IMG/VR virus record: IMGVR_UViG_3300025012_000017
Direction: 5' to 3' (one strand)
Source: a virus
DNA: 48,620 bases
In this document: in pieces, positions 24,110-46,161 of the stretch
How positions within the stretch are numbered: the first letter of the stretch is position 1
Layout of the letters: every line of letters starts with the position of its first letter
The notes under the pieces: model-generated
Told to the model about the DNA's origin: nothing
Databases searched by the model: none
Seen by the model: the letters and a program-made list of their open reading frames with translations, nothing else
Translations under genes and position numbers: made by a program

Positions 24110-24125
24110 ATGAATCTTTACTGGG
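24110..24125 (+). promoter_or_regulatory. Copy of the recurrent motif (ATGAATCTTTACTGGG)
   Basis: Matches the consensus (G/A)TGAATCTTTACTGG. Its 3' GG runs into the terminator stem. Confidence 0.6.
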
Positions 24126-24158
24126 AGGGATGTTGAGTCCCTCCCTTTTCTTTCTTTA
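24123..24158 (+). terminator. Intrinsic terminator of the plus-strand structural operon
   Basis: GGGAGGGA (24123-24130), loop TGTTGAG, TCCCTCCC (24138-24145), followed by TTTTCTTTCTTT. Confidence 0.8.
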
Positions 24159-24326
24159 AAGACTCCCTCCAGGCTTACTCAAGACCTGGATTCAAGCACC
24201 CTTTACCACCCAGTGATTCTTATGTCCCTGCCCGATCATCATAATGCCTACCGTCCCTGTTAGTTGTTGTTGTTTTGGAACTGATTTCTGTTTCTGAGTG
24301 GGTGCTTTGGAAGTCTTTGTTTGGTG

Positions 24327-24662
24327 TTAGAAAACCCGGCTTCTGAGTACTGAGATCTTATCTAAGATGTCGTTGATGATGCTGTCCATGGTACTTGGAT
24401 AACTCGTCAGAACATTGGACATACTAAAGAAGTCCTCATTGTATTCTGGTTGAGTATTTGGCTGACCATCCATTGCTGAGATTACGTCGGACAAGACAAA
24501 GGAGACTTCTTGAAGTCTTGCGTAACTTCGATTGAACTGAATGAGCTTTGGCTCTTCGTCTTGCTGGAGTTTGGAAGGTGCTGCTTCTCCTTGGCAATAC
24601 TTTACCTTTGTTTCCTCGATTACCGGATGGTGCTTTTTCTTCGTCGTTGAAATTACTGGCAT
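24327..24662 (-). CDS. Hypothetical protein (last gene of the minus arm)
   Basis: 111-aa ORF starting 1 nt after the upstream stop. Confidence 0.5.
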   Translation of the reverse strand: MPVISTTKKKHHPVIEETKVKYCQGEAAPSKLQQDEEPKLIQFNRSYARLQEVSFVLSDVISAMDGQPNTQPEYNEDFFSMSNVLTSYPSTMDSIINDILDKISVLRSRVF

Positions 24663-24663
24663 G

Positions 24664-25923
24664 TTAGTTTCCTTTCTGTTTCTTCCTCCCCCAGATGTAC
24701 CAGATCCCTGTGACGCCAGTCTCCGGGTGAAGGAAAGTCCTGTGTGCGATTTCCTGTTGAAGTACTGTCTTGATCACGTTGTCGAACTTGGTGTTGTCGA
24801 TGTCCCTGACGGTTCGCTGTCTGACAAAACGCTCCTCGATGATCCCTTCCTGCTTGATGATCCGTGTCACCTCCGCGACCTCAGCTGCTATATCACTCTT
24901 CCCGACTGCTACGAAAGCGTTTTCCATACTGGCTTCGACTTCCTCTATGTGGTGGAGTGCTTCCTTGAGTTCATCGCTTGTGACAGTCATGGTGTTTCGC
25001 TTCGCTGCTGAGAGGATCATTCCTAGCTTCAACACGAACAACGGCTTCCTGGAATACCATCCCTTGAACGCCGTGTCCTTGCAGAGCCTCGTCGGGCTTC
25101 TCTCGTCGTAGTCTGTGTACCAGTCAACCCACCATTGGTAGCTCTCGTTGGTGTAGTTGTAACCCCCGGAGAGACCCCGGATGACGGCAAGGTCTGAGAC
25201 GAGTTCCTTTTTGATTCTCTGGACTTCGCTGTTCTCCTTTCTGTAAGTCTGGAGTTCTTCCCAGGATGTCACGCCGGGGACAGGGACTTTGGTTCCTTTG
25301 TCCTCTGACCAAGGGAAGAGAATCCGGGATGTCAAGCCTCCGCCGATGGCTCTAGCAGGAAGGCAAGAGGCTAGACTCTCTGGTGTTGTTGCTGCCAGGA
25401 GGTTGAGAAAAGGACTCTCGATTACGTTGCTTCCGCTGTGCTTGGTTCTGTACTTGTAAGGCCTGGTCTTACAGTCGAACAAGTCTGTGAGCAAAACTAT
25501 CATCTTCTGGTTGTCGCCCTTTTGACCGAGGAACGATTCGAACTCACCTGAGATGATATATAAACTGTTATGTATAAAGGTAGAACCGTCTCGCATTTGT
25601 TCATCTTCTTTAGCAGTTTCCAAGTCCTCCAACATCGCTTGCGGTGTGATAGCATCTGCACTGCGGTGGATACCAGAAACCTCAGCAACGATTTCTTCGC
25701 CAAAGGAGATAGCCTGAGTTTTTCTAGAGATCCCCGGTTCGGAGACCAATACCACGAACAAGTTTGGGTAGATTTTAATTCTTCCAAAGTTAAACCACAC
25801 TTTCTTCTGAAGCGCCCCGGCGATGACAGAGAACGCTGTCCATTTGTGAAAGAGCCTCGGGCTTTCTGTGTTTGCCACGTAGCTGTAGTAACCTTCCATC
25901 CAATCTGGTAGTCTCCGCGACAT
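24664..25923 (-). CDS. P-loop NTPase, DUF3987/VirE-like (putative replicative helicase or primase-associated protein)
   Basis: Walker A-like LVSEPGISRKT. Walker B-like KMIVLLTDLFD. 419 aa in the replication module. Confidence 0.45.
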   Translation of the reverse strand: MSRRLPDWMEGYYSYVANTESPRLFHKWTAFSVIAGALQKKVWFNFGRIKIYPNLFVVLVSEPGISRKTQAISFGEEIVAEVSGIHRSADAITPQAMLEDLETAKEDEQMRDGSTFIHNSLYIISGEFESFLGQKGDNQKMIVLLTDLFDCKTRPYKYRTKHSGSNVIESPFLNLLAATTPESLASCLPARAIGGGLTSRILFPWSEDKGTKVPVPGVTSWEELQTYRKENSEVQRIKKELVSDLAVIRGLSGGYNYTNESYQWWVDWYTDYDERSPTRLCKDTAFKGWYSRKPLFVLKLGMILSAAKRNTMTVTSDELKEALHHIEEVEASMENAFVAVGKSDIAAEVAEVTRIIKQEGIIEERFVRQRTVRDIDNTKFDNVIKTVLQQEIAHRTFLHPETGVTGIWYIWGRKKQKGN

Positions 25924-25953
25924 GTTGTGCTCCCATAGTTTGCTCCTTGTTCG

Positions 25954-26247
25954 TTAGCAGACTTTATTACCGTGGCGATAGGGTCTGTTGATGTTGAAGG
26001 CATGTTTCGTCAGGACAGCTTTCTCTAGGTTGATATTGTAGCCCGCGGCCATGTCCATTACTCGGATGATGATGTCAGCTAGTTCTTCCTCGAAGTTCTC
26101 GTTGTTCCCGTTCCTGTAGGCTTCGAGGGCTTCTGAGACTTCGGAGTGAACGAGGCACAGGAGTTCCGGGATAGGTCTTGAAGTAGTCCACCAGCCGTGT
26201 TCGACAGCATTCTTGTGAACGAGTTCTGCGATTTTACTGAATTCCAT
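25954..26247 (-). CDS. MazG-like nucleoside triphosphate pyrophosphohydrolase
   Basis: Pattern HSEVSEALEAYR...EEELADIIIRVMD...KHAFNINR is typical of the all-alpha NTP-PPase (MazG) family. Confidence 0.7.
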   Translation of the reverse strand: MEFSKIAELVHKNAVEHGWWTTSRPIPELLCLVHSEVSEALEAYRNGNNENFEEELADIIIRVMDMAAGYNINLEKAVLTKHAFNINRPYRHGNKVC

Positions 26248-26551
26248 TCTCTTTTCCTTTCAAGTCTTTAAGTATTCTAGCAAGAAGAAGGCAAGCGTAG
26301 TGTGCGATCTTGTAGCAATCTCGGATGGCTTCTCCGGTGCCCCGGGAGTTGGAGTTGATTCTGTTGATGTAGCGCTTTAGGTTCATCTGGATTTCCTGGA
26401 TCGTAAAACTCTCAGCTTGATCATCTGGTATGTCTCCGTACTGTGGGACGGTGTAGTCCTCGATGTGCTGGAAGACTTCTTGTGCAAACACGCACCACTG
26501 TAATGCACGTTTTGAATCTTTGCTGGTTGTTTTAATCAGCATTGTTCTCAT
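26234..26551 (-). CDS. Hypothetical protein (DUF3310-like pattern)
   Basis: 105 aa. The segment QYGD...LKRYINRIN...AIRDCYKIAHYACLLL is reminiscent of DUF3310. ATGA overlap with the polymerase stop. Confidence 0.3.
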   Translation of the reverse strand: MRTMLIKTTSKDSKRALQWCVFAQEVFQHIEDYTVPQYGDIPDDQAESFTIQEIQMNLKRYINRINSNSRGTGEAIRDCYKIAHYACLLLARILKDLKGKENGIQ

Positions 26552-29022
26552 TGCTCTAGCTCCTTTGTCGAGATGTCCGGTTGCTCCACCATGTCTCCCC
26601 AGGAAGTCCCGATCTTAAAGTCCACGTCGATGTAGTAGTGGTCGCCGTGACTTGACGTGAGTTCCATCTTCATGCTGCGCCAGAGAGCTTTGAGAGTCTC
26701 TCTGCGGTTTTCCTCTCCAAGGGGAGAAAAGACATAGATGGCATCGTGAAGCTGCAGTGCAAGGCTCCTGGTGTCCGAGATAGGGTCGTTGTAGAAGCGC
26801 ACGAGTGCCTGGTTCAGCCAGTCCCCGATGGTGGACTGTGGTTTGTAAGATGCAAGACTTCGAAAGAGACTACCATCCTGCCCCGGCTTCGGCCAGCGGT
26901 CGAGAAAGCGGTGCTTCCTGCCGAACAAGTTCGAGATGACGCGGCCATTCTGCTTGAGTTCTTGTTCGAGCCTGGTGTGCCACAATGCGAGCTGGGGAGA
27001 AGCTGCTTCGTCAAGTGCCAAGAGGTACTTTGCCTCTTTCATTCCGCAGCCAAGGCGCCGAGCAAGAACCCCTGGGCCTGCCTTGTAGTTTCTAGCATGG
27101 CGAATGGTCTTACCAGCAGAGCGTTGTTTCTTATCTACCTCTGCGAAGGGAATGCCGAACATCCTGGATGCATTCAAGGTGTGAACGTCATAGCCGTTGG
27201 CTTTTCTTTCCCTGGGAGACATCCCGAAGGAGTCCTGGAAGAGCTTGATGAGCTTGAAGTCCCGGGACTCGTAGGACACCACGACTGCTTCAGCCTGAAC
27301 ACCATCAGCCTCGATGATCTCATAGCCAGGGGGTGGGACGTACATTTTCCTGGCAGACACCGGGATGTTCTGGAGGTTTCCGCTGCCGTAGGGAACGACG
27401 ATGGATTTGCTAGAGGACCACCTGCCAAAGCTTCTGTGTTGCTCCTCGTCTTCTACCACCAAGCCCTGCTTCACATCCTGCATGTTCGCGCCAGTGATGT
27501 TGTAGTTAGTGTGGACTTTGCCTGCTGGCGAGATCGGGATGTCTATGAAGGTCTTGAGCTTATAGAGTTTTCGACCTTCCAGGATTTTAGCAAGCACCGG
27601 GTTGTCAGAAGACTTCTCTAGTTTGACAAGAGCCTCTTCGTCTACGGTTCGGACGCGTTTGTCAGTCCTCTTCTTCCTTCTCTTGAATTGCTCTGGAAGG
27701 AGCAGGTCGTCGTAGAGAAGCTTTTGGAGTTGTTGACTGGAGTTCAGGTTGATAGCGCCTTTGGCCCCTTCGCTGGAATGAAAGATGACAGTTCCATTGA
27801 GCTGCTCAGAGAGTTCGATCTTGAGGCTGTGGAGTTTGCTGTCAATGTCGTCCAGGAGTTGTTGCTGTTTCTCCCGGTCCACGGTGATCCCCTGCAGGTG
27901 CAGGAAGATCGCGGGCTCTAGCTGCGCCATCTCGTAGTTGAAGACGTGCCAGTGGTCGCCCTTTGTTAGCTCGCTCTTCATCACCTCGTAGCAACCGTAG
28001 GTGTTGGCACAGTCGCTCGGATTGTAGAGAGGATCGTGGTTGTCACTTTTCCAGAGCGGGACGTTGAGGCACACGCTGGAGAGGAAGGCAAGACTCCGAG
28101 GGGTCTCAGGCCAGCAGACATGGGTCGCTACCATCGTGTCGAAGCAGGGCCCTGGGATGTAGATTCCATGGTGGTGGTAGAGCACGGCATTGTCGAAGGC
28201 TAGGTTGTGACCTACGATTGTGTGAGTGTCTTCTGGACGAGGGACTGAGAAGACCTGGGCAAGCTTTTGCCAGACTTCGAGTTCGTCGTCAGGATGAAGT
28301 TTTGGATTTCTCCCTGAGAGGAACTTGAAAGAAACTGCGTGGTCCGGGGAGTCAGCAAGGCCGAGTTCCTCGATGTGAGTTCCTGGCTGGACAGTCTCAA
28401 TGTCTACTACGACTGCTTTCTTGTGATCGTGGATCAGGAAGTCCAGGTAGTCCAGAAAGACTTTCTTCGGGGCACTCGCAACCAGTCGTCTATTGTCTCT
28501 CGGTAGTGTTTTATCCTTCGAATTTCGAAGTGCTTTCTTGAGATCCATGATGACTGAGAAGTGGAGCTTCCACTCGTGGTTGACGGCCTGGGGGTGGTAG
28601 GTCGAGAAGACTTTGACGCCGGGGACGAGGGTAGACTCTGTGATGTAGCCTCTTTCCCTTTCTATTCCCCAGTTCCCTGTCAGTGCTCCGTTGGCCTTTG
28701 CTCCTAGGGCTATGACTATGTTCGGTCGGTACTTGATGATGTCGTTTTTCAGTTCCTCAATGAACTGTCTGAGGATAGGCTTAGGTGTTCTCTTCTTGGG
28801 ATCTTCGAAGAAGAAGTCAAAGTTGTTCCCTGGTGGTCGTTCCTTAGCAACATTCGTGATCAGGCATTCGTGGCGATTGATCCCGGCTGCGCGAAGAAGA
28901 GTGTCTAGGGTGTGCCCGGCGTAGCCTATGAAGGGCTTCCCGCTTCGATCCTCATCTTCTCCAGGAGCTTCGCCTACGAGCATGATCTGTGAGTTCGCAG
29001 GTCCAGTGATTTCAACGCGCAT
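26548..29022 (-). CDS. DNA polymerase I family (PolA) with N-terminal UDG-family-4-like domain and 3'-5' exonuclease
   Basis: UDG-like: GEAPGEDEDRSGKPFIGYAG and TYHPQA. Exonuclease: VVVDIETV, GHNLAFDNAVL, YNPSDCANTY. Polymerase: motif A IIEADGVQAEAVV, motif B RSAGKTIRHARNYKAG, motif C LQLHDAIYV. Start set at ATG 29022 (MRVEITG) because AGGAG lies 7 nt upstream; the track start 29070 has no RBS. Confidence 0.9.
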   Translation of the reverse strand: MRVEITGPANSQIMLVGEAPGEDEDRSGKPFIGYAGHTLDTLLRAAGINRHECLITNVAKERPPGNNFDFFFEDPKKRTPKPILRQFIEELKNDIIKYRPNIVIALGAKANGALTGNWGIERERGYITESTLVPGVKVFSTYHPQAVNHEWKLHFSVIMDLKKALRNSKDKTLPRDNRRLVASAPKKVFLDYLDFLIHDHKKAVVVDIETVQPGTHIEELGLADSPDHAVSFKFLSGRNPKLHPDDELEVWQKLAQVFSVPRPEDTHTIVGHNLAFDNAVLYHHHGIYIPGPCFDTMVATHVCWPETPRSLAFLSSVCLNVPLWKSDNHDPLYNPSDCANTYGCYEVMKSELTKGDHWHVFNYEMAQLEPAIFLHLQGITVDREKQQQLLDDIDSKLHSLKIELSEQLNGTVIFHSSEGAKGAINLNSSQQLQKLLYDDLLLPEQFKRRKKRTDKRVRTVDEEALVKLEKSSDNPVLAKILEGRKLYKLKTFIDIPISPAGKVHTNYNITGANMQDVKQGLVVEDEEQHRSFGRWSSSKSIVVPYGSGNLQNIPVSARKMYVPPPGYEIIEADGVQAEAVVVSYESRDFKLIKLFQDSFGMSPRERKANGYDVHTLNASRMFGIPFAEVDKKQRSAGKTIRHARNYKAGPGVLARRLGCGMKEAKYLLALDEAASPQLALWHTRLEQELKQNGRVISNLFGRKHRFLDRWPKPGQDGSLFRSLASYKPQSTIGDWLNQALVRFYNDPISDTRSLALQLHDAIYVFSPLGEENRRETLKALWRSMKMELTSSHGDHYYIDVDFKIGTSWGDMVEQPDISTKELEQ

Positions 29023-29032
29023 GAGTTGGCTC

Positions 29033-29230
29033 CTAGTCTTTTTTATGGAAGCGAAGTTCACGTACTTCATCTACAAGATGCATTACAGCCATAGTCAAGA
29101 ACATTACTGGATTGGTTCTTCTAAAAATTTCATCTACGACATCAACAGCAAAATCTTGTTTAAAGATCTCTTTAGCCAGATTAAGCATCAGCTCTTCATA
29201 CTCCTTATTATACTTGAATAAACTTTCCAC
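29033..29230 (-). CDS. Small hypothetical protein (65 aa)
   Basis: GTG at 29230 preceded by AGGAGG. The longer track ORF would overlap the upstream gene. Confidence 0.4.
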   Translation of the reverse strand: MESLFKYNKEYEELMLNLAKEIFKQDFAVDVVDEIFRRTNPVMFLTMAVMHLVDEVRELRFHKKD

Positions 29231-29238
29231 GTTTCCTC

Positions 29239-31523: not shown

Positions 31524-31537
31524 CCAGTAAAGATTTA
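31524..31537 (-). promoter_or_regulatory. Copy of the recurrent motif (sense TAAATCTTTACTGG)
   Basis: Lies in a 150-nt intergenic gap. Followed by AAGGAGGAAAGT then ATG 31511. Confidence 0.6.
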
Positions 31538-31661
31538 TTTATTGAATTACAGTTGGTTAAGTTGCAGGAGTCAGGCTTATCCTGCTACCGGGATGGCTCT
31601 CGCCTCTGTTTCATCGCTTCTGTGTAATGCTCCGCAGGCCCGGATGGTTTGAAGGTTTAAC

Positions 31662-32060: not shown

Positions 32061-32069
32061 GACAGCCTC

Positions 32070-33689: not shown

Positions 33690-34715
33690 CTATAGATTCT
33701 TCGCCGGGTCCCAGTGATCCCCGACATGGTAGTTCTCGAAGCCCCTGATTTCCAGGGTGTGGCGTGTTTCTCTTTCCGTCAGGTTCCTGTCACAGATGTC
33801 AGAGAAAGAGCACCTGCCGTAGGTGTAGCAAGAGCCGTGCTCGCAGGGGAAGTTGTCATGGTCAATGGCGAGCATGATTCTCTGAGCGCTTTCCAGGAAG
33901 TTCTGTCTCCATGAGTTGATGTCGTCCTGGGAGTAGATCATGGGGACGCGGCGGAATTCGATCTTGGGCTTGCCGTATTCGCCAGTGGTTTTGCTTTTGT
34001 AGGCGCTGAGATGGTGCAGTGTGATAAAGTGACCCTCCGGAATCTCTTCCAGGACTTGACTTCCAGCATAGGTGTAGCCGATGCTCTGTGCGCTGCGTTG
34101 GAGTCTGCTGAGCTGCGTTGACATTGGCTGTCCAGTGGTCTTGTGATCCAGCTGCCAGTACCGTCCGTCGTAGTAGATTTCCATGTCAATAACGCCAGTG
34201 AACCAGAAGGGCTTCAGATAGGGGAAGCGGTGTTGTTCAGCAGGGGAGAGAATCATAGGGAGCTTGAATGGTTGCTCGACTGCGATGACTTTCAGGTGAT
34301 TTTCATCAGCCACGAACTCGTTGATATAGCACTGGAACGCCTGAAGGAGATTCTGGAGGGTTCGGTAGTCGTTGTACCAAGTGAAGTGTTGTCTTGTTTC
34401 TTCTTCCCAGGAAGTATTGGCTTGGAGAATTGCGTCTGTGATAGCTCCGCCGTCGTGGGTCCAGCCGTGGTCTTTGATATTCGCGTAGAAGGCTTCCATA
34501 GTCCTGTGCCAGACAGAGCCGTAGCGAAGAGCGCTGGAGCCTTGGTCCGGTTTCAGGTCGAGGATGTGACTAAGGAGGTATTTGCGGAGGCACTGATGGG
34601 CTGTGTCTTTACTGGAGTAGTCCAGCTTCAGGGAAGAGTCGTCCGGGGTTTGGTAGGTGAGTAGGCCTGTCATTATGTTCTCCATTCCTTTGAGAAGCTC
34701 TGCTGGTGTTGACAC
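33690..34715 (-). CDS. PD-(D/E)XK exonuclease, Cas4/RecB-like with C-terminal Cys cluster
   Basis: VIDMEIYYDGRYWQLDHKT (D...D/E-x-K). N-terminal Cys (HQC) plus C-terminal CEHGSCYTYGRCSFSDIC. GTG at 34715; an alternative ATG at 34673 has better RBS spacing. Confidence 0.65.
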   Translation of the reverse strand: MSTPAELLKGMENIMTGLLTYQTPDDSSLKLDYSSKDTAHQCLRKYLLSHILDLKPDQGSSALRYGSVWHRTMEAFYANIKDHGWTHDGGAITDAILQANTSWEEETRQHFTWYNDYRTLQNLLQAFQCYINEFVADENHLKVIAVEQPFKLPMILSPAEQHRFPYLKPFWFTGVIDMEIYYDGRYWQLDHKTTGQPMSTQLSRLQRSAQSIGYTYAGSQVLEEIPEGHFITLHHLSAYKSKTTGEYGKPKIEFRRVPMIYSQDDINSWRQNFLESAQRIMLAIDHDNFPCEHGSCYTYGRCSFSDICDRNLTERETRHTLEIRGFENYHVGDHWDPAKNL

Positions 34716-34851: not shown

Positions 34852-35271
34852 CTACACGCCAGGAACGTTGATGCCGATCGCTTTCAGCGCGGCAATTGCA
34901 GCGGCCTTCTCAGCCGGGGGAAGCTTCGCCAAGCCGGAGGTGATGTCATTGACAGAGACCTTCGGGGAGGCAGGGGCGCGGACGGTGAGCTCGCCTTTGA
35001 GCAGGCCTTGCCAGACGGACTGGATAGCCTCTTCAGCGTCGGTGCCAGATCGTCCCGCGGCGGCATCGCCAAGGCGGTGGTTCAGAGCCAGAGCCGGCAG
35101 GTAGGCCAGGACTTTCTGGTCTTTCAGGGCCTTGGGGTCGAAGGTCATCTTGCCTTTTTTGCCGTCAATCACTGTGATTTCCAGCAGGTTGCCCTCGGTG
35201 ATGTTCTTGATCAGGCGGCGGGCTTTGGCTGGGGCTACTGCGGCGGTCGTGTTCGGGGTTGCTTCGGTCAT
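34852..35271 (-). CDS. Hypothetical protein (GC-rich, A-rich)
   Basis: RBS AAGGAG before ATG 35271. 139 aa. Confidence 0.55.
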   Translation of the reverse strand: MTEATPNTTAAVAPAKARRLIKNITEGNLLEITVIDGKKGKMTFDPKALKDQKVLAYLPALALNHRLGDAAAGRSGTDAEEAIQSVWQGLLKGELTVRAPASPKVSVNDITSGLAKLPPAEKAAAIAALKAIGINVPGV

Positions 35272-35404
35272 GTGCTTTCTCCTTTAGATGTTGTGAGATG
35301 ATGTCTGCGAGGTAATCTCGCATTGGGACTTTGGCATCTAGTGCCAAGATTGTCAACTGCTTATGTTCTTCGTCTGAGATGATCGTCTGCACGTTTTTGC
35401 TCAC
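35165..35404 (-). CDS. Ribbon-helix-helix (CopG/Arc-like) DNA-binding protein
   Basis: GTG start 7 nt after AAGGAGGG. VQTIISDEEHKQLTILALDAKVPMRDYLADIISQHL fits the beta-alpha-alpha RHH pattern. The ORF tail overlaps the next gene by 107 nt. Confidence 0.5.
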   Translation of the reverse strand: MSKNVQTIISDEEHKQLTILALDAKVPMRDYLADIISQHLKEKAHDRSNPEHDRRSSPSQSPPPDQEHHRGQPAGNHSD

Positions 35405-35461: not shown

Positions 35462-35758
35462 TTATGGTTTAGTAAACATCGGTTTTTCTGCCGGTCCCTT
35501 GTTACCTTCTGCGACGGTTCCGAAGTCGAAGTCAGGAACTTTCATCACTGGGGTCGAAGAGGTCACAGAAAGCCTTGAGACATCGAACCAGTGGCATTCT
35601 TGAGGCAGTCCTTCTTTGTTAATTCCTGGATTAACGATTGCTTGGATGCATCCGTAAAGGTCGAAGGAGATAGAGGAAACAACTCCTTTCATACCAGTTA
35701 CACGATCCTTTACTTTGCAGCCGAGCAGATCAAGGTGCTTTTTAACATTTTCACTCAT
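35462..35758 (-). CDS. Hypothetical protein (98 aa), first gene after a motif-bearing intergenic region
   Basis: ATG 35758 preceded by GGAGGACAAC, which overlaps the motif. The track start 35848 lies upstream of the motif. Confidence 0.55.
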   Translation of the reverse strand: MSENVKKHLDLLGCKVKDRVTGMKGVVSSISFDLYGCIQAIVNPGINKEGLPQECHWFDVSRLSVTSSTPVMKVPDFDFGTVAEGNKGPAEKPMFTKP

Positions 35759-35766: not shown

Positions 35767-35781
35767 CCAGTAAAGATTCAT
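35767..35781 (-). promoter_or_regulatory. Copy of the recurrent motif (sense ATGAATCTTTACTGG)
   Basis: Ends 8 nt upstream of ATG 35758. Lies in a 137-nt intergenic gap. Confidence 0.65.
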
Positions 35782-35895
35782 ATTCCGTGTTTTTCCTTCG
35801 TCGTGCACATAATGTAATGTAACCATCATTTAATTGAATATAACGCACTTTCTCTCAGGTGTCAATGGGTTTTTTCGGTTGTTCGGTGTTAATTT

Positions 35896-38985: not shown

Positions 38986-39388
38986 CTCTGACACCTCCCT
39001 TCCAGGAGCTTTTCATTTGTTGAATGTCTTCTGGTGTTGCACCGTCCTCTTCCATGAGCTTGCAGATTCTCTGAATTTCAGAGTCTTCGCTGTCACAGAT
39101 GTCGAGGTTCTCTGTTGTTCCATCGGCTCTGGTGAGTGTAATATTGCTGGGTCCGAGGGGCTTGTAGAGAATCACGAAGTATTTTTCTTGTTTCTTGCTG
39201 GAGAAGCGGGAGATGGTCAGGCCGGAGAAAGAAAGGCCGGCGTTTTCCTGGAGGTTTTTCTCTTTGATCAGGGCAGTTCTCGTGGCTTCCATTTCCAGGT
39301 AGGTTCCTGCCTTGATGGTGATCTTCTCTCCTGTCTTGAGAGCCAGGGCTCTGGAAAGGATTTCCCTGGTGAGTGTTGCGCTGGGCAT
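38945..39388 (-). CDS. Hypothetical protein with C-terminal HTH-like motif (paralog of 37733..38164)
   Basis: 147 aa. Overlaps the next gene by about 41 nt. Confidence 0.45.
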   Translation of the reverse strand: MPSATLTREILSRALALKTGEKITIKAGTYLEMEATRTALIKEKNLQENAGLSFSGLTISRFSSKKQEKYFVILYKPLGPSNITLTRADGTTENLDICDSEDSEIQRICKLMEEDGATPEDIQQMKSSWKGGVRDDNADSNNHLQDS

Positions 39389-40442: not shown

Positions 40443-40458
40443 GGTTTGTTTTCCTTTC

Positions 40459-40886: not shown

Positions 40887-40899
40887 ATCTTCTTCCTTT

Positions 40900-41208
40900 C
40901 TACGACTCTAAGAGGTCCTGGATGGCATTCGTGTAGATTTTGAATTTCTTCAAGAGAGTCTTGATCAACTCCATGTCGAGCTTGTCTTCTGACTTGTAGA
41001 ATTCCAGGCTCTCCTGGAGTTCATTAGCTAGTGCTATTGCCTTGAGGCTTTCTGTCGAAAGCTTCCTAAGGCTTTCTTCAAGCCTGAGGTAGACAACAGA
41101 GGGGATTGTCAGGATGTCTTCTTTTCTTTCTTGGTTTTCTGTCATGGTTAGTTCCTTTGAATTAGGGTCAAGACATTTGATGTTAGTAGTATTTTCATAC
41201 CAAGACAT
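40900..41208 (-). CDS. Hypothetical protein
   Basis: 102 aa. RBS GAGGAAAGG. Its start shares one nt with the upstream stop. Confidence 0.45.
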   Translation of the reverse strand: MSWYENTTNIKCLDPNSKELTMTENQERKEDILTIPSVVYLRLEESLRKLSTESLKAIALANELQESLEFYKSEDKLDMELIKTLLKKFKIYTNAIQDLLES

Positions 41209-41399
41209 CAGTCCGATTTCCTTTCCTCTTTAAAGCGAGAAGGGCAGACAAGTCTGCACTCTCTGGGTGTGTAGGTGTCAGAGACAGTGCATGTTGATAG
41301 GCACCGAGGCCAGGGCGTGGCGTACTCTGCTGCTCTGAGAGTTCTCTTGTAGAAGGCTTCTTTCACTTCAGCTGGTGTCAGGATGTGTTTCGCCATCAT
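41208..41399 (-). CDS. Small Cys-containing protein (63 aa)
   Basis: ATG 41399 forms an ATGA overlap with the upstream stop and follows AGGAGAG. The longer track ORF (to 41567) overlaps the upstream gene out of frame. Confidence 0.45.
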   Translation of the reverse strand: MMAKHILTPAEVKEAFYKRTLRAAEYATPWPRCLSTCTVSDTYTPRECRLVCPSRFKEERKSD

Positions 41400-41680
41400 T
41401 CTATCTCTCCTCTCGCTTTCTTGTTGTGGTAGAAGCACAGGTCGAGTCTCCGGTAGTCTGCGGTGGAAAAGATCTTGGTAGTCTTCAGGCCCAGGTCGTC
41501 TTCGGTTTTGACTTCTTCGAGTCTCTTCGTTCCAGGGATCATTTCCAGCTCGACCGGCTGCATGCACTTCTTGCAGAGTGTGACTGCCGGGAGCGGGATG
41601 AAGTTGGTTGAGGCTGGCTTCTTTGAAAGCACGGCAGAGTCAATCTCTTCTTCCTCATCTGTGTCCCAGAACTGTGTCAT
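41396..41680 (-). CDS. Hypothetical acidic/zinc-ribbon-like protein (94 aa), first gene after a motif copy
   Basis: ATG 41680 (MTQFWDTDEEEE...) lies 20 nt downstream of the motif, with AAGGAAAGGAAA between them. Contains CKKC. Confidence 0.5.
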   Translation of the reverse strand: MTQFWDTDEEEEIDSAVLSKKPASTNFIPLPAVTLCKKCMQPVELEMIPGTKRLEEVKTEDDLGLKTTKIFSTADYRRLDLCFYHNKKARGEIE

Positions 41681-41700
41681 AGTGTCGTTTCCTTTCCTTG

Positions 41701-41724
41701 TCAGTAAAGATTCACATTGTGAAT
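41701..41724 (-). promoter_or_regulatory. Recurrent motif with dyad (sense ATTCAC-AAT-GTGAATCTTTACTGA)
   Basis: Perfect 6-bp dyad (41710-41715 with 41719-41724) plus the motif core. Lies in a 59-nt intergenic gap. Confidence 0.65.
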
Positions 41725-41739
41725 TGTAGGTGGTTGTTG

Positions 41740-41973
41740 TCATGCTATAAAGTCTACGTTATTTCTGAGAGAAACCACTGTTCTTGTGACATTTATGTTA
41801 AGATTTTTGGTGTTGTTTATAGCAGCTTTTGTGCAGTTTTGTCTGTTGCTATAGATTCTATCACCATAGATAGTAAACTTAGTCGTTTCTAACAACCAAC
41901 GCCACACTACTTCAGTGGCGTTATCAGGGTTGTAAATTTGCCACAGTCTAATAGTACCTCTTGGCTTATGCAT
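41740..41973 (-). CDS. Small hypothetical protein
   Basis: 77 aa. RBS GGGAGGA. Confidence 0.45.
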   Translation of the reverse strand: MHKPRGTIRLWQIYNPDNATEVVWRWLLETTKFTIYGDRIYSNRQNCTKAAINNTKNLNINVTRTVVSLRNNVDFIA

Positions 41974-41983
41974 GTCTTCCTCC

Positions 41984-42181
41984 CTATTTCAAAGCCGTTC
42001 CAAAAAGCAGCTCTTCCAGGTAGTCTGGTTCCAGGCCGAACCACTCCTCTGTGAAACCCTCTAGGTCTTCTCCAGAGTCCAGTCTTTCATTCATGTCTTC
42101 GATTGCGTTCTGGATAACTTCTCTTGCCTCTTCCTCTGTCATACCATCCCGCTTCATCAAGACCTGTTTCAGTGTCTGCAT
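41984..42181 (-). CDS. Small highly acidic protein
   Basis: 65 aa. RBS AGGAG. Contains MTEEEAREVIQNAIEDMNERLDSGEDLEGFTEEWFGLEPDYLEELL. Confidence 0.5.
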   Translation of the reverse strand: MQTLKQVLMKRDGMTEEEAREVIQNAIEDMNERLDSGEDLEGFTEEWFGLEPDYLEELLFGTALK

Positions 42182-42192
42182 GTTGAAAGCTC

Positions 42193-42648
42193 CTAGAGTT
42201 TCAGTTGTTTCAAGTTGCTAGCAGAAGCCCTCGTGGAAAGCTCCGTGACACGTTCCTGAAGGACTCTGTTATCCTGCGCGAGCCTGTCATAGTCTTCTGA
42301 GATGTCAGTCAAAGTCTTATTCTCGTCTTCCAGTTCCTGGATTTTCTTCTTGAGACTTTCTACCAGGGTGATGATAGACTCTCCAACTTCCAGGGTGTTG
42401 AAGGTATTCTCTCGGAGGATCTGTGGGGTTTTCTGTTGTGATGGCAGGTTTTTCTTGATGTAGTTGTTATAACTTATTCTGTCAATGATTCCTATCTTGT
42501 GGATGTAGAGAATGTGCTGCCCTGCTTTCACCTGCTTGACGCCAGCCTTCTTTGCAATGTCCTGGACAGAGAAAGGACCGTTCCAGTTGATGATTGCCTC
42601 TTTGACTTTCTGTGTCTCCGGTGTTTTAGCTGTCCATTCTGTTGTCAT
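42193..42648 (-). CDS. Possible HTH protein with C-terminal coiled coil
   Basis: ATG 42648 (MTTEWTAKTPE...). FSVQDIAKKAGVKQVKAGQHILYIHKIG is HTH-like. The C-terminus has a leucine-zipper-like heptad pattern. Confidence 0.4.
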   Translation of the reverse strand: MTTEWTAKTPETQKVKEAIINWNGPFSVQDIAKKAGVKQVKAGQHILYIHKIGIIDRISYNNYIKKNLPSQQKTPQILRENTFNTLEVGESIITLVESLKKKIQELEDENKTLTDISEDYDRLAQDNRVLQERVTELSTRASASNLKQLKL

Positions 42649-42743
42649 AGTGTTCCTTTCTTTTTCTGGTTTAAAAACCAAGCCAACTCTAACAACCGTG
42701 AAGACAGTCAGGAGGTCGCAAAGCCTGGCTGTCTTAGCTGCTG

Positions 42744-42887
42744 TTAGCGTTGAAGGGCTGCAACTGCCATGAGAAGCCAGAGAGCCGCGTAGCCGAAGAG
42801 GACTGAAAGGATGATCTGGCACACCAGCTTTAGCTTGCTTGGTTTCTTTTCCTTCCAGACGTAGTTAAAATTCGAATTCTGAGTCAT
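42744..42887 (-). CDS. Small membrane protein (47 aa; below the ORF-track cut-off as an independent gene)
   Basis: ATG 42887 lies 9 nt after AGGAGG. Contains the TM segment LVCQIILSVLFGYAALWLLMAVAAL. Confidence 0.45.
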   Translation of the reverse strand: MTQNSNFNYVWKEKKPSKLKLVCQIILSVLFGYAALWLLMAVAALQR

Positions 42888-43095
42888 TGTCTTCTTCCTC
42901 CTCTTTCTTGCAGATAGCATCAAAGCAGATTTCGCAAAGGCCAGAGATCCTGAACTCTTGCTTTCCTGCTTCGGAGTAACAGCGCTCCACGGCGGGCTTC
43001 TTGCACTGGATGCAAGTCTCCTTTGCCTTGGCATCTTCCACTGTTTCCCCGTAGAGCGCTCTTGCAAAGTTGTCCTTGAATTCCTTTAGTGACAT
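42865..43095 (-). CDS. Zinc-ribbon protein (76 aa)
   Basis: ATG 43095 follows GGTGGAGGAACCGCC. Contains CIQC...CEIC. Confidence 0.5.
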   Translation of the reverse strand: MSLKEFKDNFARALYGETVEDAKAKETCIQCKKPAVERCYSEAGKQEFRISGLCEICFDAICKKEEEEDNDSEFEF

Positions 43096-43415
43096 GGCGG
43101 TTCCTCCACCAAATAGTTGCAAGGATTGAAGTGCCCTGTTTTTTCAAAGAAACTTTTTTCATATGGAATAACTCCACTGTCGCTCGCAAAGGTGTCGCAA
43201 AGATCGCCATTCTCCAGTTTAAAAATCAGAATGGGTTTAATAAGTTTATCACTGTCACAGCAGATCAGCTTTACCGGGTAGTTGTAAAAGACTATCTGAA
43301 CCAGCTGACCACGGAACTGCACGTGTTTTCCTGCGTTGCCATACTTAGTATAAGTCCTACCAATTTTCAAGTTTTCCATGCCGTGTACTGCATTTGGAAA
43401 CAGCGGGTGTGTCAT
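43086..43415 (-). CDS. Hypothetical protein
   Basis: 109 aa. RBS AAGGAGG. Confidence 0.5.
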   Translation of the reverse strand: MTHPLFPNAVHGMENLKIGRTYTKYGNAGKHVQFRGQLVQIVFYNYPVKLICCDSDKLIKPILIFKLENGDLCDTFASDSGVIPYEKSFFEKTGHFNPCNYLVEEPPCH

Positions 43416-43428
43416 GAAAGCCTCCTTT

Positions 43429-43737
43429 CTAAGGTCCAGTCAATTCTTCCAACATCTCTACCAGGTCTTCCTCACAGAAGACTCCCTTGATGGTAGAGGG
43501 TTCCGAGGGCAGGACCTTAACACACTCTGCCCGGGCTTGTTCCAGTTCTGCAAGAAGCCACCTGGTGGAGTAAACCAGGTCTATGTCCGTGGGGCTTCTG
43601 TAGCCCACGGGGATTTCTCTGATGATGGTTTTTCTCTGCGAAACGATCCTCAGGCCAGTTGCCGCGCCTGGGTCTGCTATCGCAGACGTAACGAGGAAAA
43701 ACCCTGCTGTTGCTGTGATTGTCAGGAAACGCTTCAT
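43429..43737 (-). CDS. Exported protein (signal peptide)
   Basis: ATG 43737. MKRFLTITATAGFFLVTSAIA is signal-peptide-like. The track start 43818 adds an implausible extension. Confidence 0.5.
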   Translation of the reverse strand: MKRFLTITATAGFFLVTSAIADPGAATGLRIVSQRKTIIREIPVGYRSPTDIDLVYSTRWLLAELEQARAECVKVLPSEPSTIKGVFCEEDLVEMLEELTGP

Positions 43738-43880
43738 GCTTTGTTGTTCCTTTCTTCTTCTTGGTAGTAAAGGCAATTCCCACAGTCCTCTCCCTGCTCC
43801 TTCTGGCAGTAGAGACACCCCAGTTCCCTATCACTCAGAAGAAGCAAAAGTGCTGCGGTGGTGAGTTGGCTTGTCGTCAA
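43734..43880 (-). CDS. Small Cys-rich peptide (48 aa; not in the ORF track)
   Basis: TTG 43880 lies 6 nt after AAGGAG. Contains CLYC...CGNC. Its stop forms an ATGA overlap with the next start. Confidence 0.35.
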   Translation of the reverse strand: MTTSQLTTAALLLLLSDRELGCLYCQKEQGEDCGNCLYYQEEERNNKA

Positions 43881-43947
43881 GTTGTTTCTCCTTTCCCTTC
43901 AAAGTCTAAACCCACGTTCGGGTAGCCAAGAAGACTTCTCTCCTTGA

Positions 43948-44208
43948 CTACCCTGGCTTGGGTTTAGGAATGATTCTTTGCTGCCCTGGCATTGCTTTTT
44001 CAGCAATATCCCAGAGTTTCTTATTCAGATCACTGTTCTTGAAATCTCCTGCACTTGCCAAGGCTAAGCACGCACCGAACTGCTCATCATCCAATTCATA
44101 ATGATTGTTATCCATAGATACAGAATCCCACACTTTGACGTACCACTTTTCTGGACCGCGTTCAGCTTTAAACTGTGTGTCTTCCATGATTCCAGTAATT
44201 TCGATCAT
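43948..44208 (-). CDS. Hypothetical early protein
   Basis: 86 aa. RBS GGGAGAAAG. Confidence 0.5.
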   Translation of the reverse strand: MIEITGIMEDTQFKAERGPEKWYVKVWDSVSMDNNHYELDDEQFGACLALASAGDFKNSDLNKKLWDIAEKAMPGQQRIIPKPKPG

Positions 44209-44233
44209 TTTCTTTCTCCCTTCAGTTAATTGT

Positions 44234-44485
44234 TTAATGCTTTGAAGTCAAGGATTGTAGATTACTTCTCATGAAACTAAGGTCCCATTGAACTTTCTTA
44301 CCATTTTCAGTTTTCAGATCTATAAGAGTCTTGAAACAATGTCCTGGATGGCTGCCGGTAAAGACTTCATGGATGCACGTGATTGTAGCATATTCACCAT
44401 ACTTTGCTACTAAGTACTTCTTAAAGCTGAGCTGTTGTCCGACTGAGTATTTCATCAGCTTTTCCTCATTAAATGATTTTTTCAT
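44234..44485 (-). CDS. Hypothetical early protein (first gene of the minus arm)
   Basis: 83-aa ORF. The internal ATG at 44455 (MKYSVGQQ...) has a GAGGA RBS, while ATG 44485 has none, so the true start may be 44455. Confidence 0.5.
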   Translation of the reverse strand: MKKSFNEEKLMKYSVGQQLSFKKYLVAKYGEYATITCIHEVFTGSHPGHCFKTLIDLKTENGKKVQWDLSFMRSNLQSLTSKH

Positions 44486-44497
44486 TGATTAATGTCA

Positions 44498-44526
44498 ACC
44501 GTATCACATGGATCATGGTGTGTCAA
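44498..44526 (-). promoter_or_regulatory. Candidate sigma70-type promoter for the minus (early) arm
   Basis: In the minus sense: TTGACA (44526-44521), 17-nt spacer, TACGGT (44503-44498). A second TTGACA lies at 44498-44493. Confidence 0.4.
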
Positions 44527-44630
44527 CAATGATTTATAGTTGATATTGCACGATGCACGATCAATGAACAACGACCCATCGACCCTGTATCGTGTACCGT
44601 GTATCGTGTAACCGTGGGCCATTCCGCCAC

Positions 44631-44655
44631 ATTCACCCCGTGAATCTTTACTTCC
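44631..44655 (+). promoter_or_regulatory. Motif copy with perfect dyad (ATTCAC-CCC-GTGAATCTTTACTTCC)
   Basis: Read directly from the sequence. Dyad arms at 44631-44636 and 44640-44645. Confidence 0.7.
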
Positions 44656-44680
44656 TTCTCCTCCTCCTGTGTCACATATT

Positions 44681-44696
44681 ATGAATCTTTACTGGG
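44681..44696 (+). promoter_or_regulatory. Motif copy (ATGAATCTTTACTGGG)
   Basis: 41 nt after the previous copy. Confidence 0.7.
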
Positions 44697-44713
44697 CTTC
44701 CCTTCAGATCCTT

Positions 44714-44736
44714 TTCACGCGGTGAACCTTTACTGG
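44714..44736 (+). promoter_or_regulatory. Motif copy with dyad (TTCAC-GCG-GTGAACCTTTACTGG)
   Basis: 41 nt after the previous copy. One mismatch to the consensus. Confidence 0.7.
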
Positions 44737-44793
44737 AAGTCCGGGTGTTGCTGGCTTGTCCTCTTCTGGGCTCTCACAGCAAAGTTCTTTCTC

Positions 44794-44808
44794 GTGAATT
44801 TTTACTGT
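44794..44808 (+). promoter_or_regulatory. Degenerate motif copy (GTGAATTTTTACTGT)
   Basis: 72 nt after the previous copy and 35 nt before the T tract. Confidence 0.55.
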
Positions 44809-44826
44809 AACTTTTGAACATCTTCT

Positions 44827-44879
<53 letters not shown>

Positions 44880-44968
44880 TAAAAGTAAGAAATAGCCTAA
44901 TAGAGAGGTAGACAGTAAAGGAGAGCAAAGTAAAGAAAGAGACAACTGGGCAAAGAAGCCAGTAAAGA

Positions 44969-44991
44969 TTCACGACGTGAAACGGTGGGAA
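44969..44991 (-). promoter_or_regulatory. Motif copy with dyad, inverted orientation (sense TTCAC-GTC-GTGAATCTTTACTGG)
   Basis: The plus strand reads CCAGTAAAGATTCACGACGTGAA. Preceded by half-motifs AGTAAG (44894), CAGTAAAG (44923) and AGTAAAG (44939). Confidence 0.7.
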
Positions 44992-45219
44992 CGACCGGAA
45001 ATTACACGTTACACGGTACAGGGTACACCTCTGATTGTTGATGTTTTATACATCATCATGGTGTATCTTTCCAACAATCCACGACGTTTTTAGCCCATAC
45101 ATGGACATGCCCGAACGACAAAACACGCCACAATCGCCCCACGTTGCGTTTAAATGCCCTATATAATGGATGTATCGAACCAAACGCCCAATGCCCCAAA
45201 ACCCCGGCGGAAACGCCGT

Positions 45220-45233
45220 GTGAATCTTTCCTG
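45220..45233 (+). promoter_or_regulatory. Motif variant (GTGAATCTTTCCTG)
   Basis: Positions 45221-45233 are the exact reverse complement of 46149-46161. Confidence 0.55.
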
Positions 45234-45250
45234 CGGTGCAAGCACCAGAA

Positions 45251-45280
45251 AGTCCAAAGTCCTTGATAAAACCTGCCATG
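45251..45280. repeat. Left arm of the 30-bp imperfect inverted repeat bracketing gene 45307..45738
   Basis: Its reverse complement CATGGCAGGTTTTATCAAGGACTTTGGACT matches 45771-45800 at 25 of 30 positions. Confidence 0.8.
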
Positions 45281-45306
45281 TTTAGTTGAGTTTAAATTTA
45301 AAATGT

Positions 45307-45738
45307 CTATTCCGAAACAACAGCCGAAACTAAAGCCAACGACTTCTGGAGTGCCATTGCAATCACCTCGTCTTTCAAGCCCTGGGCTCGAAGAGCCCGG
45401 ACGGCTGCCCCGAGGTCGAACGCTGTCCTGGTCGAAGCTTTCTTTTCAAAGAGCTTTCCATTCAACCACTCTTCCCAAGTCGCCTTCAACGTCGCCTTCT
45501 TATCAGCAATCGTTTCAATCTCCGGCGGGGCCAGGGCATCGCTCAGCTTCTGCTTGACGCCGTATTGAATTGCGAATCTCTGTCCCACGGTCAACTCCGT
45601 AAAGCTCGGGAAGAGCTTGCGAAGTTCGGCACGAAACAGGAAATCAAAGCTCGGCTTCTCCTTCGTCCCACTGTTCACACCACACACCAGCTCGCTGCCA
45701 TTCTCAAGCTTCCAGGTCAATCTTACTTTTTCTGCCAT
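45307..45738 (-). CDS. Hypothetical protein, isolated gene inside the control region
   Basis: 143-aa ORF, GC-richer than its neighbours. GTGAATC lies immediately upstream of the ATG (plus strand GATTCAC at 45739-45745). A sigma70-like promoter lies about 180 nt upstream. Confidence 0.55.
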   Translation of the reverse strand: MAEKVRLTWKLENGSELVCGVNSGTKEKPSFDFLFRAELRKLFPSFTELTVGQRFAIQYGVKQKLSDALAPPEIETIADKKATLKATWEEWLNGKLFEKKASTRTAFDLGAAVRALRAQGLKDEVIAMALQKSLALVSAVVSE

Positions 45739-45770
45739 GATTCACCAACCTTTCTTCGGCTTTGCCGAAC

Positions 45771-45800
45771 CATGGCAGGCTTTATCAAAGACTTCAGCCT
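45771..45800. repeat. Right arm of the 30-bp inverted repeat
   Basis: CATGGCAGGCTTTATCAAAGACTTCAGCCT. Confidence 0.8.
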
Positions 45801-45918
45801 TTTCATGTTGCCGACGCTCCTATGCGTTCATCCATCGCGCCGACCGTATGAGCCAGTCTCATACAACTACCAGTAATCTAATCGCTTGCATCACCTCCTT
45901 CCATCAACTTATGGTTCA

Positions 45919-45947
45919 ATTAAATCATGAAAACATTAAATTGTCAA
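45919..45947 (-). promoter_or_regulatory. Sigma70-type promoter directed toward gene 45307..45738
   Basis: In the minus sense: TTGACA (45947-45942), 17-nt spacer ATTTAATGTTTTCATGA, TTTAAT (45924-45919). Confidence 0.55.
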
Positions 45948-46148
45948 GCAAGAAAACGACTGTCCAACAACAACCGTGTTTCATGCTTCCTTCCAACACC
46001 ATCCTCCACACTCTCAAGCCAACCACCCCCGAGGCACCCAAGGCCCCCTGGCGACCGAGGAAGATGGGCTGCGTTTTACACGCAAGTAGTTTTTCAAGCC
46101 CGTTACTGGAAGGGTTGGTGCTGGAATGGAGGGCTCCCGCGGAACCAT

Positions 46149-46161
46149 CAGGAAAGATTCA
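46149..46161 (-). promoter_or_regulatory. Motif variant, inverted (plus strand CAGGAAAGATTCA)
   Basis: Exact reverse complement of 45221-45233. Confidence 0.55.

Follow-up and report, generated by a model that had tools for sequence, protein, structure and literature searches.

A 33-bp four-block palindrome recurring at start codons and in an origin-like region of an uncultured podophage, a putative operator-like element

Two mycobacteriophage systems are described in which a short sequence recurs in the narrow spaces around genes. The stoperators of Cluster A phages, of the L5 gp71 type, are ~13-14 bp sites present in many copies in short intergenic spaces and promoter regions, where the bound phage protein is proposed to halt both the initiation and the elongation of transcription; the sites are asymmetric, bound by a monomer and oriented with transcription, and the phages that carry them are temperate and encode an immunity repressor (PMC9283540). 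The start-associated sequences (SAS) of Cluster K consist of 13-14 conserved nucleotides (nt) directly 5' of start codons, overlapping the ribosome-binding region, and in some copies are extended by an inverted repeat just upstream (17-bp repeats with a variable spacer). They are conserved across subgroups before unrelated genes, nearly all lie in one orientation, and their function is unexplained (PMC3203893). Here we describe an element that invites comparison with both, in the IMG/VR virus record IMGVR_UViG_3300025012_000017, a stretch of 48,620 nt analysed at its full length and referred to below as the window. A sequence-only reading, made from the letters of the window, had noticed a recurrent 14-mer, TGAATCTTTACTGG, which proves to be part of a 33-bp palindrome built of four blocks. 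The element is real and conserved, ordinary in kind and new in form.

A pattern scan of both strands confirmed that the 14-mer recurs. With up to two mismatches there are 15 matches, compared with a mean of 0.54 and a maximum of 3 in dinucleotide-preserving shuffles, and 11 of the 15 fall in non-coding DNA, which constitutes only 7.9% of the genome when computed with the gene list of this analysis (binomial P ~7e-10). The view that the motif is concentrated outside genes is thus upheld. Ten of the 11 positions first listed are correct to within 1 nt, while the copy placed at 44969 on the minus strand in fact occupies 44959-44972. The scan added copies at 15113(-), 26513(+) and 47191(+), a match at 34602(+) that is at chance level, and a second spacer class, TGAAAAGGTnCTGG, represented at 4029(+), 10389(+) and 39015(-). 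The sequence 5' of the 14-mer is also part-conserved, and this, together with the second spacer class, identifies the 14-mer as one half, the right and better-conserved one, of a 33-bp palindrome. Its skeleton, CCAr-N6-TTCA-N5-TGAA-N6-yTGG, matches the window 14 times with at most three mismatches, where 1.16 matches are expected. Information peaks at positions 1-3, 11-14, 20-23 and 30-33, so that the centres of the blocks are 10, 9 and 10 bp apart; this spacing places the four blocks on one face of the helix, approximately one turn from each other, as is typical of a protein binding along a single side of B-DNA. Ten full palindromes and seven half elements can be distinguished (Table 1).

The copies occupy characteristic positions in both arms of the genome, the plus arm (1-24042), which resumes at 46247, and the minus arm (24327-44485). 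Eight of the ten full copies lie 2-20 nt 5' of a start codon, these being drawn from both arms, and the outer CTGG block runs into the Shine-Dalgarno sequence, as in CTGGAGG. The 14-mer half is found in both orientations, either of which occurs in tight gaps 5' of start codons, again in both arms. At 15113 and 26513 the half is antisense, and the two copies, which seemed antisense or coding, are palindromes in narrow stop-to-start gaps. The former overlaps a stop codon, and the latter is inside the gap past the stop codon of PolA, provided that GTG 26491 is the start of the following gene, which is what the close relative L119 suggests. The distances of 8, 12 and 20 nt given earlier for three minus-arm copies and their ATG codons are correct, as is the observation that GTGAATC adjoins the ATG of the gene starting at 45738. 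By contrast, the minus-arm copies do not occupy the only sizeable gaps of that arm, as had been stated, since motif-free gaps of 136-216 nt occur at 29071, 34716, 35272, 42649 and 43741; the gap at 35272 actually contains an unannotated small gene.

In its many copies, and in its preference for short intergenic spaces and promoters, the element resembles the stoperators. It differs from them in being a 33-bp palindrome of four blocks with halves in both orientations, in sharing no sequence similarity with them, and in belonging to a phage for which neither an integrase nor a prophage form was found, and in which copies cluster at an origin-like region of an apparently lytic genome. The placement of eight of the ten full copies 5' of starts and into the ribosome-binding site recalls the SAS, although the sequences are not homologous, and the window's element is a single palindrome of fixed spacing whose 14-mer half occurs in both orientations, with copies also at a terminator and in a gene-free, origin-like cluster. 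Some copies of either kind of sequence have an inverted repeat just 5' of them.

Conservation was examined in relatives; a TerL profile retrieved 80 IMG/VR loci, and 1.12 Mb of DNA from relatives was surveyed. The close relatives L119, L121, L137 and L266 retain every copy that could be examined. Elsewhere in IMG/VR, a scan for the exact 14-mer returned, among the matches listed, single chance occurrences only, and none of 119 loci with two CTTTACTGG copies 15-45 nt apart has a protein in common with the window. Family members whose terminase is 53-68% identical carry an analogous palindrome, GTCAA-N3-TTGAC, of which 80 distinct copies were found in the surveyed DNA versus about one expected (the next commonest 5-nt dyad has 18). 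In its extended form this reads AGAAAnGTCAA-www-TTGACnTTTCT, with approximately equal conservation of the two arms and a flank pairing of 119, against 106 +/- 4.8 for shuffled partners. It begins 3-9 nt past the upstream stop, 18-33 nt 5' of the next start, and the genes that it precedes include those for TerL, the portal and the large virion protein. As the palindromes of the relatives lie in the same gaps, the window's element can be regarded as one lineage's version of a family-wide intercistronic palindrome, which appears common to a large family of uncultured ~48-kb podophages that have a fusion of uracil-DNA-glycosylase (UDG) and PolA. A further case is offered by L141, whose PolA is 69% identical and which has two positionally homologous sites with differing stems. 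The first consists of GGCACA-tta-TGTGCC followed by TTTACTGG and a ribosome-binding site; the second, the equivalent of the 24092 copy, is AACAT-taa-ATGTT-TCTTTACTGG and precedes a terminator. Three other apparent signals in relatives were discarded: TTTACTGG alone, which occurs 124 times, mostly in coding sequence and with a perfect hairpin 5' of it in 5 cases; the repeats TATGATGAAGT, AAGTGTCTTTGACA and TCAGTTACTGT of L131 and L124, which are coding repeats of fibre proteins and not regulatory motifs; and a TAAG box, which is the stop codon of the upstream gene.

A palindrome whose blocks are in helical phase is the kind of site expected of an oligomeric DNA-binding protein. For this reason we favour, at a probability of roughly 40%, the view that the sites are putative operator-like DNA elements for an oligomeric phage regulator which, in the manner of stoperators, would gate the host polymerase. 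A site for a dimeric or oligomeric DNA-binding protein, one of the possibilities raised earlier, seems to fit the anatomy best. The regulator would be a phage-encoded, sequence-specific protein acting on double-stranded DNA as a dimer of dimers or a higher oligomer, touching four successive major grooves on one helix face. Bound in the gaps between stop codons and ribosome-binding sites, and in the 5' leader of the recombination and replication operon, it could block or gate elongation by the host sigma-70 RNA polymerase. At least eight full and half sites around a T-tract and heptad repeats might load the same protein onto an early control and origin region, and such loading could couple timing, replication and transcription.

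Ribbon-helix-helix regulators provide a precedent for such an arrangement. The operators of Arc, Mnt, CopG and omega consist of short subsites, one per helical turn, on which dimers assemble into tetramers or arrays, and the regulator gene typically lies beside its own operator. The 10/9/10-bp spacing of the window's blocks is of this kind, its heptads recall omega sites, and an Arc/CopG-like protein, encoded beside one copy by the unannotated open reading frame (ORF) 35165-35404, is one candidate for the regulator. The ORF overlaps an ATG-TGA pair and is overlooked if an ATG start is expected. Homologues exist in L119 and L137 (78% identical), L141 (36%) and L264. A two-sequence profile of the product matched YiiF (E-value 0.009), a CopG-family regulator (0.15) and ORF56 (0.54), and the L141 copy matched a PHROGs Arc-like repressor family weakly (0.05). 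The monomer is modelled as an extended N-terminus or strand followed by two helices (pLDDT 63). In L119, L137 and L141 the candidate is the first gene past the motif, while a gene for 98 amino acids (aa) intervenes in the window. This gene (35462-35758, minus strand; phrog_37639), directly past the copy at 35767, is missing in L119 and L137, which have 96 unrelated nt in its place; this insertion or deletion falls precisely where the motif ends. Other candidates are a helix-turn-helix protein encoded at 46247-46720, the first gene of the plus arm, and a winged-helix/coiled-coil protein encoded at 42193-42648.

Several observations weigh against an operator read by such a regulator. The ribbon-helix-helix assignment has weak scores (E-values 0.009-0.5), and a Foldseek search with the low-confidence monomer model gave no matches. 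The N-terminal strand of the candidate, its presumptive DNA-reading part, is near-identical in the window (MSKNVQT) and L141 (MSKNIQT), while the inner dyads differ (TTCAC/GTGAA in the window compared with the two stems of L141 given above). A strand that does not co-vary with the inner dyad is no obvious reader of the inner blocks, so the assignment is a lead. In addition, the occurrence in L141 of two stems before the same TTTACTGG looks more like selection on structure than on sequence, and in most copies the outer CTGG overlaps or abuts the Shine-Dalgarno sequence, an arrangement equally compatible with an element that acts in translation or at the RNA level. Finally, no integrase was found among the ORFs searched, and a genome scan revealed no prophage copy, the matches being phage-sized contigs binned into metagenome-assembled genomes. 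The phage thus appears lytic; an immunity repressor of the stoperator type would be unexpected, and the reading requires a temporal regulator in its place.

The tight linkage to ribosome-binding sites, and the differing stems of L141 with their common tail, keep an RNA-level reading alive. The element would then be the target of a phage or host factor, or of an endoribonuclease, and would regulate the downstream cistron through its translation initiation or its stability, comparable to the start-associated sequences of Cluster K, to translational operators or to the T7 RNase III sites. We consider this unlikely, although it can draw on more than the fusion of CTGG with the Shine-Dalgarno sequence 2-20 nt from starts and the retention in L141 of pairing, 3-nt loop and TTTACTGG. 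The copy at 35767 is certainly transcribed, being within a leader, and the four substitutions that separate the stems of the window from those of L137 all leave G.U-compatible pairs on the motif strand (chance about 1 in 5). The dispersed copies are, however, unfolded, with minimum free energies of -1.2 kcal/mol or weaker and positive z-scores, and palindromic blocks at helical phasing would be meaningless in RNA. At 15113 and 26513 the sense transcript has the opposite half, and in the cluster copies face one another across the T-tract with no gene near. The palindromes of the family show no sense-strand excess of G.U pairs (17 versus 24) and equal folding energies for sense and antisense strands. 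The hairpin operator in RNA envisaged by the sequence-only reading is accordingly weakened: its perfect TTCAC-N3-GTGAA dyads, with spacers CCC, GCG, GTC and AAT, are indeed present, but in just four of at least 17 copies, and the dispersed copies display no stable folding and the family palindromes no G.U excess.

These four dyads also underlie the proposal that the element is a promoter for a phage-encoded or virion-delivered RNA polymerase, T7-like or of the N4 hairpin type, with the transcript starting in or near CTGG. N4 early promoters have a stem of 5-6 bp and a 3-nt loop, and the four copies share these dimensions, a conserved tail and a location shortly 5' of genes; with the loop centre at -11 the start would fall at the C, T or G of CTGG. 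Elements in the relatives lie directly 5' of many genes, tandem copies beside an A/T tract recall the primary origin of T7, and a conserved virion protein of 1461-1763 aa is without assigned function. Nevertheless, the proposal is highly improbable. No RNA polymerase family was detected with Pfam and PHROGs in any ORF of at least 270 aa or in the many small ORFs searched, nor among the precomputed Pfam matches of the relatives' called genes. A profile of the large virion protein had no polymerase match in the PDB, and its AlphaFold model, built on a thin alignment, is all-helical and of low confidence (pLDDT 36); a homology search with its C-terminal 763 aa returned one sequence. Searches for motifs of two-barrel or T7-type polymerases yielded just DPDGD, in the fibre gene, and DVFGT, whose D is not invariant in six homologues. 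T7-like promoters are asymmetric boxes of ~20 bp, co-oriented with the gene and containing the transcription start, in contrast to a 33-bp palindrome whose 14-mer half is found in two orientations, and N4-type promoters would have a 5-7 bp stem and a 3-nt loop in every copy, whereas most copies here are free of a hairpin, a perfect stem of at least 5 bp being confined to the four. One conserved copy follows the last structural gene and is directed straight at the terminator of the structural arm, and the four tandem copies of the cluster aim at the T-tract, past which there is no gene.

Consensus sigma-70-type promoters are, moreover, located at the expected operon starts (Table 1). One of them is 57 nt upstream of the copy at 35767, which thus occupies +50 to +63 of the transcript, a position that suits a roadblock or leader element and not a promoter. 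The earlier suggestion of a single-subunit polymerase promoter is hence not sustained. Two attempts to read the element itself as part of a host promoter were also rejected: TTGAC of the family dyad as a -35 hexamer is followed by no -10, nor by space for one, 5' of the start codon, and a CTGTAAT box 5' of the motif as a -10 has G at position 2 in most copies and is TGCAAT in L137. BoxA/nut, parS, the ARG box, IHF sites and sigma-54 and ECF sigma promoters appear to differ from the element in spacing or symmetry. The sites could, finally, belong to an undescribed machinery, either a polymerase in the conserved C-terminal 750 residues of the virion protein that would start at CTGG on extruded hairpins, or a hairpin-specific phage endoribonuclease that would cleave polycistronic RNA ahead of every ribosome-binding site. 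We give this very little credence; if true, it would be a new gene-expression strategy in a large uncultured phage family.

The positions of the family palindromes, 3-9 nt past stop codons, and their AGAAAC-GTCAA...TTGAC-GTTTCT form, which resembles an A-tract, stem and U-rich tract, raise the question of whether they are weak, leaky intrinsic terminators between cistrons that tune the expression of long operons. This is very unlikely. The stems are short and AT-rich (mean ~-6.5 kcal/mol with the tracts included), while an intrinsic terminator has a stable GC-rich hairpin and a U-tract, which the element lacks; the dispersed copies of the window are unfolded; and the sequence itself is conserved in genomes with 53-68% terminase identity. 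Furthermore, a canonical terminator stands directly 3' of the copy at 24111.

The densest group of copies lies in 44486-45030, which we read, from its sequence features, as a probable early control and origin region. It is an imperfect inverted repeat of 74 nt, each arm of which consists of a heptad array and a dyad-bearing copy of the motif, arranged around a homopolymer of 41 T (T41). On the left, successive copies are 41, 41 and 72 nt apart, 41 nt being about four helical turns; on the right are degenerate copies, and all copies point toward the T41 tract. The predicted folding of the region is much more stable than that of shuffled sequence (z -6.8 and -5.5). In L137, where it is 86% identical, all motif copies and all heptads are kept while the intervening spacers vary, the heptad arrays (44582-44616 and 45003-45028) being perfectly conserved. 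L123, with a TerL 58% identical, has an analogous layout of inverted octad arrays (GTTTAATC), arranged as are the heptad arrays of the window, an AT-rich centre, a homologue of the 143-aa gene that neighbours the region and a TTGACA-17-TATACT promoter. The heptad arrays may be iterons or binding arrays of the omega-repressor type. In L137 and L138 the T-tract extends to ~76 nt, and three assemblies made independently stop inside it.

These features suggest that the motif might itself be a replication element, the cluster copies being origin iterons or accessory sites and the dispersed copies secondary binding or priming sites. As at iteron origins, repeated sites (heptads and at least eight motif copies) stand beside an A/T-rich region that could unwind, the T41-T76 tract within the 74-nt inverted repeat; the octad arrays and AT-rich centre of L123 are comparable, and cumulative GC skew turns near 42-44 kb. 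An origin role does not, however, explain ten dispersed copies placed precisely 5' of ribosome-binding sites, nor the dispersal of the relatives' palindromes across the structural operon, and the strands of the copies fit no simple replication-fork model, which makes replication as the primary function improbable.

Alignment of the window with L119 and L137 bears on another explanation, that the element is a recombination linker or the boundary of a mobile regulatory cassette, comparable to T4-type promoter-stem-loop cassettes, and that the repeats persist through module exchange. At 35767 and 26513 homology ends where the 14-mer does, on its 3' side; at 31524 it breaks off ~16 nt past the 14-mer, and at 24111 ~20 nt short of it. 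Genes past these breakpoints are replaced or inserted. Mosaic joints are nonetheless expected at gene boundaries in any case, most copies lie between conserved genes, and the strict four-block phasing and conservation in the family favour a molecular reader over patches of homology. This explanation is, in our view, a shade more doubtful than a replication element.

If the operator-like reading is correct, the 33-bp palindrome and its GTCAA-N3-TTGAC counterpart mark the regulatory grammar of a family represented by hundreds of genomes of 45-52 kb in sediments and groundwater, and a lytic phage would possess a global regulator unlike the temperate immunity repressors that act at stoperators. 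Alongside the unexplained start-associated repeats of mycobacteriophages, the element supplies an independent second example of such a repeat. It can help to define where operons and true start codons lie, having here revealed an unannotated small candidate regulator gene and corrected at least one gene start. The perfect copy at 39002-39034 is a concrete oligonucleotide with which to find the binding protein.

Table 1. Copies of the 33-bp element and associated features of the window.
Feature	Position	Strand	Remarks
Full palindrome, spacer class II	4010..4042	.	CCAC-ctgtcc-TTCA-caaaa-TGAA-aaggta-CTGG; conserved in L266 and L137; 3 nt 5' of ATG 4046 of a 32-codon ORF overlapping the TerL start codon
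Full palindrome, class II, 0 skeleton mismatches	10370..10402	.	13 nt 5' of ATG 10416
Full palindrome	15113..15145	.	Between plus-strand genes 14298-15119 and 15153-15695; same sequence in L266; 14-mer half on minus strand; overlaps stop codon and Shine-Dalgarno TAGGAGG
Full palindrome, 3 mismatches; exact 14-mer half on plus strand	24092..24124	.	Between the stop of the 1763-aa gene and the terminator
Intrinsic terminator, GGGAGGGA-tgttgag-TCCCTCCC then T-run	24125..24150	+	Directly 3' of motif copy; read from sequence
Full palindrome, 3 mismatches	26494..26526	.	Past PolA stop (26548), 2-3 nt 5' of probable GTG 26491
Full palindrome, 1 mismatch	31524..31556	.	12 nt 5' of ATG 31511 of a variable 87-aa gene
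Unannotated small ORF, GTG start, Arc/CopG-like ribbon-helix-helix candidate	35165..35404	-	
Half element, TGAA-tcttta-CTGG	35767..35780	-	8 nt 5' of ATG 35758
Sigma-70-type promoter, TTGACA-17-TATATT	35837..35865	-	Conserved in L119 and L137; TTGACA-17-TATTGT in L141
Full palindrome, perfect, CCAG-aagaca-TTCA-acaaa-TGAA-aagctc-CTGG	39002..39034	.	~20 nt 5' of ATG 38982
Full palindrome, including dyad ATTCAC-aat-GTGAAT	41701..41733	.	20 nt 5' of ATG 41680; conserved in L137
Heptad array, 5 copies (ACCGTGT/ATCGTGT)	44582..44616	+	Left arm of 74-nt inverted repeat
Half element, dyad ATTCAC-ccc-GTGAAT just 5' (copy 1)	44641..44654	+	
Half element, exact 14-mer (copy 2)	44682..44695	+	41 nt past copy 1
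Full palindrome, dyad TTCAC-gcg-GTGAA (copy 3)	44704..44736	.	
Half element (copy 4)	44795..44808	+	In 31-nt inverted repeat with 46149-46179
T41 homopolymer, centre of inverted structure	44829..44869	+	Proposed DNA-unwinding spacer
Degenerate motif copies	~44913, ~44927	-	
Half element, exact 14-mer, dyad TTCAC-gtc-GTGAA	44959..44972	-	Mirrors copy 1
Inverted heptad array (TACACGG), ~4 copies	45003..45028	+	Right arm of inverted repeat
Half element, 2 mismatches	45221..45234	+	Adjoins left arm of 35-nt inverted repeat flanking the 143-aa gene
Half element, 2 mismatches	46148..46161	-	Centre ~73 nt upstream of start site of 46193 promoter
Sigma-70-type promoter, TTGACA-17-TAAAAT	46193..46221	+	Plus arm
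Possible full palindrome, 3 mismatches, status uncertain	47172..47204	.	Inside 5' end of fibre gene

The first 127 nt of the window are identical to the last 127, indicating a circularly assembled genome of 48,493 bp. The plus arm encodes TerL, a P22-type portal, the major capsid protein and a 1763-aa protein without a family match; the minus arm encodes a primase, the UDG-PolA fusion, a ParB-domain methyltransferase, a Sak4-like protein, a PD-(D/E)XK exonuclease and a ligase, together with many genes that lack known relatives. Among GenBank phages there is no close relative, the nearest portal protein being 24% identical, and a near-identity search with the control region gave no match. A search with PolA yielded 246 strong homologues; most of their contigs measure 45-52 kb and come from sediments and groundwater. 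The protein (26548-29070, minus strand) has an N-terminal family-4 uracil-DNA-glycosylase domain, a fusion common to at least 246 homologues on phage-sized contigs, some of which are binned in metagenome-assembled genomes of taxa as unrelated as Heimdallarchaeia, Bacilli, Desulfobacterales and Micrarchaeota.

Searches for structured RNA with Rfam at the gathering threshold, and with relaxed filters for the control region, and a tRNA scan found nothing relevant in the window. In L263 (450-800) and L264 (2670-3060) a non-coding stretch of ~350 nt lies 5' of the exonuclease module, and its 3' end resembles the T-arm and acceptor of a tRNA (GCAGGTTCGAATCCTGC...); the window has no counterpart of this stretch and no tRNA.

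Beyond the control region, the 143-aa gene (45307-45738, minus strand) is enclosed by a 35-nt inverted repeat, 45249-45283 and 45768-45802, whose arms are 83% complementary and both contain ATGGCAGG(T/C)TTTATCAA. Two short ORFs that face each other consequently both begin MAGFIKDF. As these ORFs are not conserved in L137 past the N-terminus, the repeat has the appearance of a DNA or RNA element, and may reflect pairing of the 5' and 3' ends of the mRNA of the 143-aa gene, or the ends of a small mobile unit. An additional sigma-70-type promoter, TTGACA-17-TTTAAT (45921-45949, minus strand), is directed toward this gene. Another possible promoter, TTGTCA-17-CAAAAT (46171-46199, minus strand), has a -35 hexamer that overlaps that of the plus-strand promoter at 46193, and its predicted transcription start is right at the motif copy at 46148.

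Residues 663-732 of the 1763-aa virion protein (18751-24042, plus strand) match weakly (E-value 8e-4) the RNA 2'-phosphotransferase Tpt1/KptA, which has an ADP-ribosyltransferase-like fold. This segment is missing in the L141 and L262 homologues and may be an injected host-modifying domain. The lysine-rich 32-codon ORF at 4046-4144 (plus strand) begins 3 nt past a palindrome copy, and its stop codon and the TTG start of TerL overlap in TTGA, a sign that the two are probably coupled in translation.

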